Assembly: GCF_965641715.1 (NCBI RefSeq)
Contig: NZ_OZ282453.1
Strand: one strand, 5' to 3'
Length of the DNA stretch: 64,000 bases
Source of the DNA: Escherichia coli
Lineage (GTDB): Bacteria > Pseudomonadota > Gammaproteobacteria > Enterobacterales > Enterobacteriaceae
A program made the translations under genes and the position numbers. Each line of letters starts with the position of its first letter. The first letter of the stretch is position 1. The notes beneath the pieces were generated by a model. That model had not been told where the DNA came from and did not search any database. It saw only the letters and a list, made by a program, of their open reading frames with translations. Below, one piece after another: positions 13,335-62,818 of the stretch.

Positions 13335-14141
13335 ATGTCTGTGGTAATTAGTGATGCATGGCGTCAGCGTTTTGGTGGCACAGCGCGTCTGTATGGTGAA
13401 AAAGCGTTGCAACTGTTTGCTGACGCGCATATTTGTGTGGTTGGTATCGGTGGTGTCGGTTCCTGGGCGGCGGAAGCGCTGGCGCGCACGGGGATTGGCG
13501 CAATCACGCTTATCGATATGGATGATGTGTGCGTCACCAATACCAATCGGCAAATTCATGCCCTGCGCGATAACGTTGGGCTGGCAAAAGCGGAAGTCAT
13601 GGCGGAACGTATTCGCCAGATTAACCCGGAGTGCCGTGTAACGGTGGTGGATGATTTCGTGACGCCGGATAACGTAGCGCAGCATATGAGCGTGGGTTAT
13701 TCGTACGTGATTGATGCCATTGATAGTGTACGGCCCAAAGCGGCGCTGATTGCTTATTGTCGGCGCAATAAAATCCCGCTGGTCACGACCGGTGGCGCGG
13801 GTGGGCAGATTGACCCAACGCAGATTCAGGTTACCGATCTGGCGAAAACGATTCAGGACCCGCTGGCGGCGAAGTTGCGTGAGCGCCTGAAAAGCGATTT
13901 TGGCGTTGTGAAAAACAGTAAAGGTAAGCTCGGCGTCGATTGCGTGTTCTCTACTGAAGCGCTAGTGTATCCGCAGTCAGATGGTACGGTTTGTGCGATG
14001 AAAGCCACGGCGGAAGGGCCAAAGCGGATGGATTGTGCATCTGGATTTGGCGCGGCAACGATGGTGACCGCCACCTTTGGTTTTGTTGCGGTTTCTCATG
14101 CGCTGAAGAAGATGATGGCGAAAGCGGCGCGTCAGGGGTAA
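13335..14141 (+). CDS. tcdA: tRNA threonylcarbamoyladenosine dehydratase (ThiF/MoeB-like E1 fold)
   Basis: 268 aa with GIGGVGS nucleotide-binding motif; recognised as TcdA/CsdL. Confidence 0.9.
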   Translation: MSVVISDAWRQRFGGTARLYGEKALQLFADAHICVVGIGGVGSWAAEALARTGIGAITLIDMDDVCVTNTNRQIHALRDNVGLAKAEVMAERIRQINPECRVTVVDDFVTPDNVAQHMSVGYSYVIDAIDSVRPKAALIAYCRRNKIPLVTTGGAGGQIDPTQIQVTDLAKTIQDPLAAKLRERLKSDFGVVKNSKGKLGVDCVFSTEALVYPQSDGTVCAMKATAEGPKRMDCASGFGAATMVTATFGFVAVSHALKKMMAKAARQG

Positions 14142-57348: not shown

Positions 57349-58353
57349 GAGTTCCCCGCGCCAGCGGGGATAAACCGGGCGACCGGCAGGCGGCCTATGC
57401 GTTTTTCACGAGTTCCCCGCGCCAGCGGGGATAAACCGGGGCATTAGAATAACTTAAATGGAAAAAGAAAGAGTTCCCCGCGCCAGCGGGGATAAACCGG
57501 CCTTATCTCTGCTTGGATTCTCTGCTGATGTGAGTTCCCCGCGCCAGCGGGGATAAACCGCGGCGCACACGTTGTATTTGTGCTGCCTATGCGAGTTCCC
57601 CGCGCCAGCGGGGATAAACCGCCCACCAGCGCGTTTTTTGCCGGGGCCATAGTGAGTTCCCCGCGCCAGCGGGGATAAACCGGCAATGCTCGTACGCCGT
57701 CTCACTCCGCGTGAGAGTTCCCCGCGCCAGCGGGGATAAACCGCGGGGGCGCGGGGTGTGGACGCATTCACAGCAGAGTTCCCCGCGCCAGCGGGGATAA
57801 ACCGTATATGCAGTGCTGACAGACCGGGGGGCGCAAGAGTTCCCCGCGCCAGCGGGGATAAACCGGCAACGCAGGAACCGCAGGCGGTTCGTCATCTGAG
57901 TTCCCCGCGCCAGCGGGGATAAACCGCTTGCCGCGCCAGGGTATTTTTGTGTGGTCGTGAGTTCCCCGCGCCAGCGGGGATAAACCGTCCGCAACAACTC
58001 AGAGAACCAGACACCAAGCGAGTTCCCCGCGCCAGCGGGGATAAACCGTTTCGCCGCCGGGAAAATTTATATTAACGTTGGAGTTCCCCGCGCCAGCGGG
58101 GATAAACCGCGAAGCACGTCGGGGACCGTAAGGCGTTTGAAGAGTTCCCCGCGCCAGCGGGGATAAACCGCAATCCACGCCGAAGCGCTGGAAATGGAAA
58201 AAGAGTTCCCCGCGCCAGCGGGGATAAACCGTTTACCTGCTCGGTGATATCGTCCTGCAAATCGAGTTCCCCGCGCCAGCGGGGATAAACCGGGTACAAA
58301 AGAGGCCCCATTCTGGCAGGGCTCAAGTTCCCCGCGCCAGCGGGGATAAACCA
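57349..58353 (+). CRISPR. Type I-E CRISPR array: 17 repeats of 29 bp, 16 spacers of 32 bp
   Basis: Repeat GAGTTCCCCGCGCCAGCGGGGATAAACCG with exact 61-bp period from 57349; terminal repeat degenerate (AAGTTCCCCGCGCCAGCGGGGATAAACCA, 58325-58353); leader at the 57349 end sets + orientation. Confidence 0.97.
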
Positions 58354-60436: not shown

Positions 60437-61714
60437 TTACTTGCTGCTAGCCATTGCGGGGGCGCTATCAGCAGTACGAATTTTTTGGAACAGCAAAAAG
60501 GTAAAGACAATCACCATGGCAAGCGCCGCCATGCCCATCAGCCACATATTGCGGTAGGCTTCTGCTGCGGGCAGGGTGTCTTGCCAGTGGCCGATAATGG
60601 GGTAAACGAAGACATCCGGCAGGAATCCAATCACCGAGCAAATACCTACCGTGGTGCCCATAATGTAAGACGGTGTTCTCGCTTCGCCAGGGCAGGCCCA
60701 GTACAGCCCGCGTGAGGCGTAACAGGTGAATCCCAGCAGTAAAATCAGGCCAATCCCCATCGCGACCGATTGCGGGTTAGAGTTCGTGACGAGCAGGGCA
60801 GTTAACGCCAGCAGGCCGAGTACGGAAAGGATTTGGATCACGCGGGTAGGGGATTTCACTTTGCTGTAGGTGGTGATTATGCCGCCAAGTGGGCCGCACA
60901 GCGCGCGGAAGATTTTGTTGATCACAATCCCCATGTAGCTCGCCGCCACCAGCGACATGCCGTACATTTCGGTCAGATAGTTGGTGGAGTAACTCAGAAT
61001 GGCGTAGATGGTGAAGACACCAAAAATCACCATGCTGCAATACCAGGTGGTACTGATACGCAAAACGGCCAGGATATCGCTAAGCTGGAATGACTGTTTT
61101 TCTTCGTTATTGGCACTGCGCTGGTTGTTGTTATCGCTAACAAAAAACCAGCACAGAATCCCCAACAAGATGTAAACCACACTATAGATGATAATGACCG
61201 TTTTCAGGCTGGTGCTGTCATCCGGTGCAAAGCGAGAAAAGACCCACATGGTAAACACTGCCAGCGACATTACACCGACGCCGCGCAGCCCTTCCATCCA
61301 GCCCATAATTTTCCCTTGCTCGCTATGATCGCCAAGCAACGAGGCGGCTTTAATCGACACCGACCACAGCATTAAAATCGTTGTTATCGCAAAGGCGACC
61401 TGAATACAGAGCATTACCCACAGCGGTGGATACGTTGCCATTAACAGACCCAGTAATCCGGTAATGATCATCGCGGAAGTAATCATTTTGCGGTGTGAAA
61501 ATTTATCGGCAATAACGCCGCTGGGGGCATAAAGAATAATAGCTGCAATACCAAAGGTACTCATTATTAAACCTATCTCGGTATTGCTGAATCCCATAAA
61601 TTTCGCCATGGGAATTTGATAAATATAACGTAAATAAGCCAGGTCGAAACTAACGCCGCCGCTAAAACTAATTATCGCGAGGGTTATCCAACGGCGATAT
61701 GAGTTGTGTTGCAT
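60437..61714 (-). CDS. yqcE: MFS transporter, substrate unknown
   Basis: 425 aa, 12 predicted TM helices. Confidence 0.85.
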   Translation of the reverse strand: MQHNSYRRWITLAIISFSGGVSFDLAYLRYIYQIPMAKFMGFSNTEIGLIMSTFGIAAIILYAPSGVIADKFSHRKMITSAMIITGLLGLLMATYPPLWVMLCIQVAFAITTILMLWSVSIKAASLLGDHSEQGKIMGWMEGLRGVGVMSLAVFTMWVFSRFAPDDSTSLKTVIIIYSVVYILLGILCWFFVSDNNNQRSANNEEKQSFQLSDILAVLRISTTWYCSMVIFGVFTIYAILSYSTNYLTEMYGMSLVAASYMGIVINKIFRALCGPLGGIITTYSKVKSPTRVIQILSVLGLLALTALLVTNSNPQSVAMGIGLILLLGFTCYASRGLYWACPGEARTPSYIMGTTVGICSVIGFLPDVFVYPIIGHWQDTLPAAEAYRNMWLMGMAALAMVIVFTFLLFQKIRTADSAPAMASSK

Positions 61715-61960
61715 ATCGTATTCCCATTTGTAATAGACAAAAAAAAGAGAAAAGTAAGCCGCCCTTTCAGGTGGATTACTTTTCTCAGGTCTCTAGTAAT
61801 TGAAATAATAAATAACATGGAAAGCAGAGGTGTTGTGTGAGAGTAATCACGCTTCTGCTTTTTAAAACTATTTGATAATGCGAATATCACACTGTGATTA
61901 CGATCACATTAGCAGTTATGTCCTTATGCTACAAATTATCTCCAGTTACCAGAGATAATG

Positions 61961-62009
61961 AGAAAGGTAACTTCCCTCTCGCGGGGGAAGTTACCTTTCT
62001 TTTTTTTTG
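61961..62009 (+). terminator. Terminator-like hairpin plus T9 in the ygcW 5' leader (candidate attenuator)
   Basis: agaaaggtaacttccc-tctcgcgg-gggaagttacctttct (16-bp perfect stem) followed by ttttttttt; ends 24 nt upstream of the ygcW ATG. Confidence 0.6.
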
Positions 62010-62032
62010 CCTTACGGAAATTGGAGCTAACT

Positions 62033-62818
62033 ATGTCAATCGAATCTCTCAATACGTTCTCAATGGATTTTTTCTCCCTGAAAGGTAAAACCGCAATTGT
62101 TACCGGCGGGAATAGCGGTTTAGGCCAGGCATTTGCCATGGCGTTGGCCAAAGCAGGCGCAAATGTCTTTATTCCAAGTTTTGTCAAAGATAACGGCGAA
62201 ACAAAGGAAATGATTGAAAAACAGGGTGTTGAGGTGGACTTCATGCAGGTGGATATCACCGCAGAAGGCGCGCCGCAGAAGATAATCGCCGCCTGTTGCG
62301 AACGTTTCGGTACCGTCGATATTCTGGTTAACAATGCCGGTATTTGTAAGCTGAATAAGGTGCTGGACTTCGGTCGTGCCGACTGGGACCCGATGATTGA
62401 TGTGAACCTGACCGCCGCATTCGAGTTAAGCTATGAAGCGGCAAAAATTATGATCCCGCAGAAAAGCGGTAAAATCATTAATATCTGTTCATTATTCTCT
62501 TACTTAGGTGGACAATGGTCACCTGCATATTCTGCCACTAAACATGCTCTTGCCGGATTCACCAAAGCTTATTGTGATGAACTAGGTCAATATAATATTC
62601 AGGTAAATGGTATTGCCCCTGGCTATTATGCAACAGATATTACGCTGGCGACACGCAGTAATCCAGAAACCAATCAGCGCGTTCTTGATCATATTCCAGC
62701 AAACCGTTGGGGCGATACTCAGGATTTAATGGGCGCAGCCGTATTCCTCGCAAGTCAGGCATCGAATTATGTCAACGGGCATTTATTAGTGGTCGATGGC
62801 GGTTATTTAGTGCGCTAA
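62033..62818 (+). CDS. ygcW: Short-chain dehydrogenase/reductase (KduD/FabG-like)
   Basis: ORF track starts 61958; likely true start MSIESLNTFSMDFF at 62033 with GGAG RBS; TGGNSGLG Rossmann motif and YxxxK. Confidence 0.85.
   Translation: MSIESLNTFSMDFFSLKGKTAIVTGGNSGLGQAFAMALAKAGANVFIPSFVKDNGETKEMIEKQGVEVDFMQVDITAEGAPQKIIAACCERFGTVDILVNNAGICKLNKVLDFGRADWDPMIDVNLTAAFELSYEAAKIMIPQKSGKIINICSLFSYLGGQWSPAYSATKHALAGFTKAYCDELGQYNIQVNGIAPGYYATDITLATRSNPETNQRVLDHIPANRWGDTQDLMGAAVFLASQASNYVNGHLLVVDGGYLVR

Follow-up and report, generated by a model that had tools for sequence, protein, structure and literature searches.

The window analyzed here is a stretch of 64,000 nucleotides of Escherichia coli DNA that harbors the ten-gene ygc/yqc cluster, a cluster for which we know of no function. 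The genes ygcW-ygcU-ygcS-ygcR-ygcQ are followed by ygcP-ygcO-ygcN on the opposite strand, and yqcE-ygcE diverge from ygcW. The spacer between the divergent genes yqcE (60437-61714, minus strand) and ygcW (ATG at 62033, plus strand) is 318 bp long. These gene positions bear out what a previous sequence-only reading of the region had claimed, namely that yqcE is divergent and that no plus-strand gene lies upstream of ygcW. The ygcW product is an SDR (PF13561/PF00106). Just beyond ygcE, a type I-E CRISPR array (repeat GAGTTCCCCGCGCCAGCGGGGATAAACCG) takes up positions 57471-58171; a CRISPR is annotated in a related genome.

The leader of ygcW takes on a hairpin whose arms, AGAAAGGTAACTTCCC (61961-61976) and GGGAAGTTACCTTTCT (61985-62000), are 100% complementary and form 16 perfect pairs (Table 1). 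The perfect 16-bp hairpin with its run of nine U residues is thus as the sequence-only reading had described it, and the distance of 24 nt that it gave between the U run and the ygcW start (62009-62032) is likewise correct. In the minus-strand direction the hairpin leads into CATTATC and not into a U run, so that it is a one-way terminator for the plus strand; the orientation claimed earlier holds, with a U run on one side only. The segment 61940-62040 folds with -41.7 kcal/mol, as compared with -21.6 +/- 3.4 kcal/mol in shuffled sequences (z = -6.0; 0 of 200 as good), and the 550-bp region contains six terminator-like sites where 0.4 are expected. When positions 61500-62300 were searched on both strands with 4227 Rfam models at E <= 10, only noise was returned, all of it far below the gathering scores. 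The last 24 nt before the ygcW ATG contain two motifs with GGA, ACGGAA and UUGGAG, which resemble CsrA-type binding sites; the second overlaps the Shine-Dalgarno sequence.

Table 1. Features of the spacer between yqcE and ygcW, in window coordinates
Feature	Position	Strand	Basis and remarks
yqcE leader RNA ("ecr2775")	61739..61801	-	Sequence; covariance model 80.9 bits; published 63-nt RNA
Second CRP-like site TGTGAGAGTAATCACG, putative	61836..61851	.	Centre 42.5 bp upstream of the yqcE leader 5' end; sequence only
CRP site TGTGATTACGATCACA	61893..61908	.	Centre about 40-41.5 bp upstream of the ygcW leader 5' end; sequence and published binding
ygcW leader RNA; terminated product "ecr2774"	61940..62008	+	Mapped 5' end to end of U run; model match 61940-62011, 82.7 bits
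5' box AGUUACC, 5' strand of the proposed antiterminator helix	61944..61950	+	Pairs with 61966-61972; covariation
Purine-rich loop AGAGAUAAUGAGAAA, proposed YgcP contact (protein binding inferred)	61951..61965	+	GAG and GAGAAA invariant or nearly so in alignments A2 and A4
Switching segment GGUAACU, antiterminator 3' strand and terminator 5' arm	61966..61972	+	Covariation, folding
Terminator stem-loop of the ygcW leader	61960..62001	+	19 pairs with G.U and inner pairs; 8 G-C; 4-nt loop UCGC
U9 tract (T9 in DNA)	62000..62008	+	Read from sequence
ygcW Shine-Dalgarno GGAG (62023-62026) and ATG (62033-62035)	62023..62035	+	Sequence

The minus-strand leader of yqcE harbors a second element of the same build. 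Its box AUUACU (61800-61795) is complemented by a partner AGUAAU (61780-61775), and its terminator is constructed from a stem of 17 pairs (61786-61747) and a U8 run (61746-61739). The distance from this run to the yqcE ATG (61714) is 24 nt, the same spacing as on the ygcW side. Both hairpins have the stem-loop and adjoining U tract (U9 in ygcW, U8 in yqcE) of intrinsic, Rho-independent terminators. The two leaders can be aligned over their whole length and share the box CA(G/A)TTAC(C/T)AGAGA, the stem base GAGAAA(G/A)GTAA with its partner TTAC(C/T)TTTCT, and the U run. Judged from this alignment, the spacer is made of two inverted paralogous copies of one module. The earlier reading of the region contained neither the yqcE twin nor the CRP sites nor the link to ygcP.

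Each leader is preceded by a CRP site or CRP-like site (Table 1). The site upstream of ygcW matches the consensus and is also a PhyloScan prediction. It coincides with a CRP ChIP-seq peak in ETEC H10407 (PMC4287617), and Footprint-seq gave an in vitro Kd of 1.7 nM for its binding by CRP (PMC12871828). The putative second site occupies the mirror position for the yqcE promoter, and yqcE-ygcE is given as Crp-activated in the literature (PMC8085971). A simple promoter scan of the region missed the CRP-dependent promoters, and its two matches were at chance level. The putative -10 region of ygcW (61930-61935) has the sequence TACAAA here, as compared with TAAAAA in K-12 MG1655.

Transcripts from both leaders are found in published data sets. 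Romero et al. 2014 describe two "potential novel sRNAs" in the spacer, each consisting of one extended stem-loop (PMC4681348). The first, ecr2774, is a 73-nt RNA on the ygcW side (2898315-2898388 in NC_000913.2; Table S5 in PMC4681348), and the second, ecr2775, is a 63-nt RNA on the yqcE side that was verified by northern blot (PMC4681348). NC_000913.2 positions were transferred to the window by an offset of +1978, which was checked against an array probe-set name ending one base before the yqcE start, and then by the K-12 map; the window is the reverse complement of the K-12 numbering. The converted ends are 61940 to 62013 on the plus strand for ecr2774 and 61801 to 61738 on the minus strand for ecr2775. 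Hence both 5' ends are located about 20 nt before the stem, and the 3' boundaries from RNA-seq (62013 and 61738) fall at or just past the U runs.

Term-seq by Adams et al. 2021 adds 3' ends at 2900311(-), with 40,640 reads, and at 2900556(+), with 1,557 reads; the first lies 38 nt before the ygcW ORF and the second 36 nt before the yqcE ORF (PMC7815308). Their Rho scores of 0.50 (ygcW) and 0.61 (yqcE) put them outside Rho termination regions, and their intrinsic-terminator scores are 15.8 and 11.4 (PMC7815308). In the window these ends correspond to 61995 and 61750, which is 5 nt and 3 nt inside the 3' arms and not in the U runs. Trimming of poly-A/U from the reads was considered as the cause and rejected, as it fits the ygcW end and not the yqcE end. 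Should the 5' arm be taken up by the antiterminator helix (see below), the upper hairpins that are left end at 61988 and 61759, and the Term-seq ends follow 7 nt and 9 nt downstream. 3' exonucleases stall at about 7-9 nt from a duplex. Possibly, the ends at 61995 and 61750 reflect stalled exonucleases at the upper hairpins of the antiterminated form.

The 5' ends upstream of the hairpins, together with the 3' ends at them, indicate that transcription starts upstream and that a large share of it stops at the hairpins. Each element has its 5' end upstream (at about 61940 and about 61801), an ORF downstream and 24 nt from the U run to the ATG; in ygcW, these 24 nt leave no room for another promoter. 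Both elements very probably behave as transcription attenuators in vivo. The sequence-only reading had named the ygcW hairpin a candidate for a regulated attenuator or an RNA-stability element, on the grounds that every ygcW transcript must read through it, and had pointed to term-seq data as a check and to a ygcW start downstream of the hairpin as the observation that would speak against it. The mapped 5' end of ecr2774 at 61940 lies 20 nt upstream of the stem, and the abundant 3' end is at the hairpin, so the attenuator reading is now supported by published transcript ends on both sides. Readthrough at the ygcW hairpin is presumably regulated, and the candidate regulator is YgcP in conjunction with a covarying antiterminator helix. 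Romero 2014 and Adams 2021 catalogue the RNAs (as "simple stem-loop" and "orphan") without a regulator, paralogy, conservation or mechanism (PMC4681348, PMC7815308). The RNA motif itself has not been described before, and its terminated products are already catalogued as candidate sRNAs.

The distribution of the leader was followed in 64 loci that were gathered only by YgcP similarity and scanned by regular expression and then by a covariance model (R1) built from 67 enterobacterial leaders. Nearly every one of the 64 loci that extends far enough contains the leader, in most cases as two divergent copies; it is missing from contigs that end too early and from the locus of one Serratia ygcP. 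In Serratia microhaemolytica (L046), the ygcP homologue is found with neither a catabolic cluster nor a leader copy. At E <= 1e-4 the model yields 108 matches, including 105 genuine sense-strand leaders; the other three are two hairpin rows without a box in locus L033 and one antisense row in locus L014. Together with seven weaker Firmicute matches, 115 copies were examined. Of the 115, 111 closely precede homologues of YgcW (57), YqcE (49), YgcU (4) and YgcE (1), with a median distance of 23 nt to the start codon; this count includes the three non-leader rows (the L033 pair before YqcE/YgcW homologues, and the L014 antisense row, assigned to a YgcW homologue at a distance of 224 nt). All copies belong to clusters that encode YgcP, and their hosts are Enterobacterales, Vibrio, Bacilli, Clostridia and Negativicutes. 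No third leader was found before ygcN-ygcO-ygcP or elsewhere in the cluster, and both a search of 28.5 kb and that of the 64-kb window returned two copies only. Locus L033 (Limnobaculum eriocheiris, 13884-13953) has a single ygc-type hairpin between its YqcE and YgcW homologues that is flanked by A9 and T9 and lacks the upstream box in both directions; it resembles a leader pair that has collapsed into one bidirectional element.

YgcP-subfamily loci of Vibrio, Clostridium, Sporomusa, Fodinisporobacter, Bacillus and Thalassobacillus also carry leaders before their operons, and these encode an SDR, an FGGY kinase, an FAD-linked oxidase, ETF and a transporter. In Lachnoclostridium and Faecalibacterium, where the two matches are weak, the gene downstream encodes an FAD-dependent dehydrogenase of the DAO family (PF01266) with a BFD-like [2Fe-2S] domain. 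In YgcP clusters outside the Enterobacterales (L058, L060, L067-L070), the SDR, the FGGY kinase and the FAD-oxidase/ETF are kept and the MFS transporter is swapped for BCCT or OpuA-type (OpuAC) transporters. This swap hints at a cluster substrate that resembles a compatible solute or quaternary amine.

Conservation within the leader is concentrated in the box, the purine stretch and the lower stem, and the upper stem and loop are free to vary. All 67 enterobacterial leaders contain TTAC and AGAG without change; upstream of the stem, TTAC..GAG and GAGAAA.GT are invariant or nearly so. Among 102 distinct leaders, 96% of the cells in the terminator stem are paired, and ten pairs show changes on both sides. 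The stem contains many U-A to U.G transitions (U.G in 50 of the 102 leaders at one position), which correspond to C-A mismatches on the other strand. Such strand-specific G.U pairs indicate an RNA structure that is read on the strand of the gene and not a DNA palindrome.

The box AGUUACY is the reverse complement of RGUAACU in the 5' arm of the terminator, in ygcW (61944-61950 with 61966-61972) as well as in yqcE (61800-61795 with 61780-61775). A helix between the two would take up the lower part of the 5' arm and exclude the terminator; an alternative antiterminator fold had been proposed as a check of the candidate attenuator, and this helix supplies it. In the model-fitted alignment, 93% of the cells in the 7-bp helix are paired, as compared with 15-54% when the partner is slid. 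Three of its pairs show compensatory change (G-C/A-U, U-A/C-G and A-U/G-C), a score that 0 of 500 shuffles reach. As most of these changes separate the two paralogue types, they amount to few independent covariation events. The outermost pair forms in 63 of the 102 sequences, and the Rahnella and Ewingella leaders have one C-A mismatch in the helix. Joint changes on both sides are seen in more distant leaders, with UUGC/GCGA in Bacillus and Listeria, UUGC/GCAA in Lachnoclostridium and GUUUC/GAAAC in Faecalibacterium; one enterobacterial MAG combines TTGCC with GGCGA, both sides being changed. In the MAFFT alignment of the most distant leaders (A3) several rows are misaligned, and anchor-based counts and the model-fitted alignment A4 were used instead. 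The proposed check across Enterobacteria shows a conserved leader in which both helices have compensatory changes.

The nascent RNA was folded as well. The hairpin between box and arm is the minimum free energy (MFE) structure at -6.7 kcal/mol in ygcW (RNA of 35-45 nt) and -1.4 kcal/mol in yqcE, and before the 3' arm is made it is the MFE structure in 13 of 15 distant leaders. The full ygcW leader folds into the terminator at -34.2 kcal/mol. When the small hairpin is enforced, only an upper hairpin of six pairs is left, which is separated from the U run by 11 nt (61989-61999). The two helices are mutually exclusive and the smaller one covaries, though in few independent events. The covariation supports the view that the 7-bp helix and the stem with which it competes make up a terminator/antiterminator pair, in which the weaker structure would need a protein to persist.

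The protein that would fill this role is encoded 5.5 kb from the leaders in the same cluster. YgcP matches the full profile (1-173 of 173) of PF04309 (G3P_antiterm, glycerol-3-phosphate responsive antiterminator) with E = 1.4e-62; among its relatives, structures have been solved for the GlpP-type proteins 3KTS and 1VKF. As is characteristic of GlpP-type systems, the PF04309 protein is encoded together with the operons that it would regulate, and leader and gene co-occur across phyla. The annotation of E. coli ygcP as an antiterminator by homology is of long standing, and we know of no target assigned to it. A literature search on ygcP, the other ygc genes and PF04309 turned up no paper on their function.

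Taken together, the following mechanism is proposed. CRP-activated promoters would start RNA synthesis at about 61940 on the plus strand and about 61801 on the minus strand. The first 33 nt or so of each leader would form a hairpin with the stem AGUUACY/RGUAACU and a purine-rich loop AGAGA..GAGAAA. By default, the far more stable terminator stem would retake RGUAACU, and the polymerase would release an RNA of 60-70 nt at the U run. With inducer present, YgcP, as a GlpP-family protein, would bind and lock the box-loop hairpin, so that the lower half of the terminator is blocked and the polymerase reads through into the operons. The inducer may be the phosphorylated product of the FGGY kinase YgcE. 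We put the probability at roughly two in three that the two terminators gate ygcW-ygcU-ygcS-ygcR-ygcQ and yqcE-ygcE and that YgcP acts as their antiterminator through this exchange of helices. The binding of YgcP to the leader RNA, the readthrough that follows on it and the identity of the ligand are what we infer beyond the transcript and alignment data. Most likely, two sugar-like catabolic operons are kept off until YgcP overrides their terminators. It is also rather probable, if a little less so, that the leaders make up an undescribed, phylum-spanning family of cis-regulatory RNAs (AGUUACY box, purine loop, switching segment and terminator) that is the specific target of the YgcP subfamily.

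Three other explanations of the leaders can be set against this mechanism. It is unlikely that they are unregulated, that is, leaky terminators that damp strong CRP promoters, or 5' stem-loops that stabilize the mRNA, without a dedicated antiterminator. Terminated products do pile up in ordinary LB culture, and a stabilizing role has a precedent in the glpD leader of B. subtilis, which reportedly also controls mRNA stability (so the title of Glatz et al. 1996). An unregulated leader, however, leaves unexplained why box and purine stretch upstream of the stem are invariant and conserved across phyla, why the box covaries with the 5' arm, and why the element co-occurs so strictly with a PF04309 gene. 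It is quite unlikely that ecr2774 and ecr2775 are independent trans-acting sRNAs, with the hairpin and U tail serving as their terminator and possible Hfq module and the mRNAs arising from incidental readthrough. Both RNAs are catalogued as potential novel sRNAs, one of them is northern-verified, and they are abundant in LB (40,640 Term-seq reads); a stable hairpin followed by at least eight U residues is typical of Hfq-dependent sRNAs. Yet 111 of the 115 copies are placed a median of 23 nt before the start of a ygc-cluster gene and none elsewhere in the loci or the window. The conserved box, purines and lower stem with a free upper stem and loop are the opposite of a conserved seed, and the 24 nt from U run to ATG offer ygcW no other promoter space.

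Control of the leader by something other than YgcP, such as a metabolite riboswitch, leader-peptide attenuation or a DNA operator at the palindrome, is very improbable. The position in the 5' UTR would suit any attenuation mechanism, but a riboswitch is opposed by the Rfam search, with no match beyond noise at E <= 10, and by the roughly 20 nt before the stem, which are too short for an aptamer. A leader peptide could be suggested by an ATG at 61958 that opens a frame through the hairpin; this AUG is not conserved (AAG, CUG, ACG, CCG and GGG in homologous leaders), and the option was rejected. The perfect 16-bp palindrome is a conceivable site for a dimeric DNA-binding protein, but the G.U pairs, the one-sided U run and the compensated variation in upper-stem length point to recognition of RNA and not of DNA.

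If YgcP does act as the antiterminator, its target is narrowed to two leaders of about 65 nt with a conserved box and a helix swap, and the regulation becomes accessible to reporter fusions and in vitro transcription. The "candidate sRNAs" ecr2774 and ecr2775 would then be reinterpreted as products of attenuation. A fusion of the ygcW leader to a reporter could be used to screen for the inducer and the substrate. Such a system would also offer a way into a catabolic pathway that is so far unassigned (SDR, FGGY kinase, FAD-oxidase/ETF and MFS/BCCT/OpuA transporters).

The closest known system is GlpP of B. subtilis, which together with glycerol-3-phosphate overrides terminators in the 5' UTRs of glpD, glpFK and glpTQ. 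At the GlpP-regulated promoters, the core promoter is followed by a GlpP site and then by an inherent terminator in the 5' UTR (PMC9604022). The ygc system resembles this arrangement in its cluster-encoded PF04309 protein, in the intrinsic 5' UTR terminator within about 20 nt of each regulated promoter, and in purine-rich GAGA/GGAGA repeats that run into the 5' arm of the terminator. An FGGY kinase, a transporter and a flavoprotein dehydrogenase are among the regulated genes of both. The glpD leaders of B. subtilis and P. megaterium likewise have a short upstream segment that is complementary to the arm (GGUC/GACC and UGGUU/GACCA), and the hairpin between the two is the MFE structure of the nascent RNA; in the B. 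subtilis glpD leader, which is experimentally defined, GGUC and GACC occupy positions that correspond to those of the ygc helix (sequence taken from Table S4 of PMC9604022).

The two systems differ in their host, which is proteobacterial for ygc, and in their promoters, which depend on CRP in ygc and on CcpA in the glp system. The ygc genes encode an SDR, an FAD-linked oxidase with ETF and MFS transporters, and are not glpF, glpK and glpD; proof of G3P as the ygc ligand is unlikely. Classical glp leaders begin with AAGUUAAUA, whereas the ygc leaders have a different RNA sequence. The glpFK and glpD leaders of P. megaterium/Paenibacillus (L071 8565-8737 and 11128-11293; L073 8571-8820 and 12750-12880) show this start and GGAGA repeats that run into the terminator. 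The combination of AAGUUAAUA and GGAGA may mark the GlpP site of classical glp leaders. The ygc covariance model R1 scored at best 14 bits on classical glp leaders (P. megaterium glpD, E = 0.42) and returned nothing on glpFK, and a helix equivalent to the ygc antiterminator is predicted for leaders of the glpD type only and not for the glpFK type. Since the model finds no match, RNA homology to the proven GlpP targets is not established, and the likeness is one of working principle only. Membership of the classical glp leaders in the same RNA family was accordingly rejected, their model scores being at noise level; it is the architecture alone that resembles. The reading with YgcP as antiterminator would suggest a general architecture of RNA recognition for the poorly understood GlpP family.

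A second point of comparison is the RAT-terminator switch of BglG, SacY and LicT (bgl in E. coli, sac/lic in B. subtilis), in which a weak 5' hairpin also overlaps the 5' arm of the terminator and is stabilized by a protein. The ygc system differs from it in having neither a PRD-domain protein nor a RAT consensus. YgcP has the TIM-barrel-like fold of PF04309, and its control is presumed to come from a small ligand in place of phosphorylation by the PTS. If the proposed mechanism is true, the ygc leaders would represent the first GlpP-type protein-dependent antitermination in Proteobacteria and, after BglG, the second such class in E. coli.
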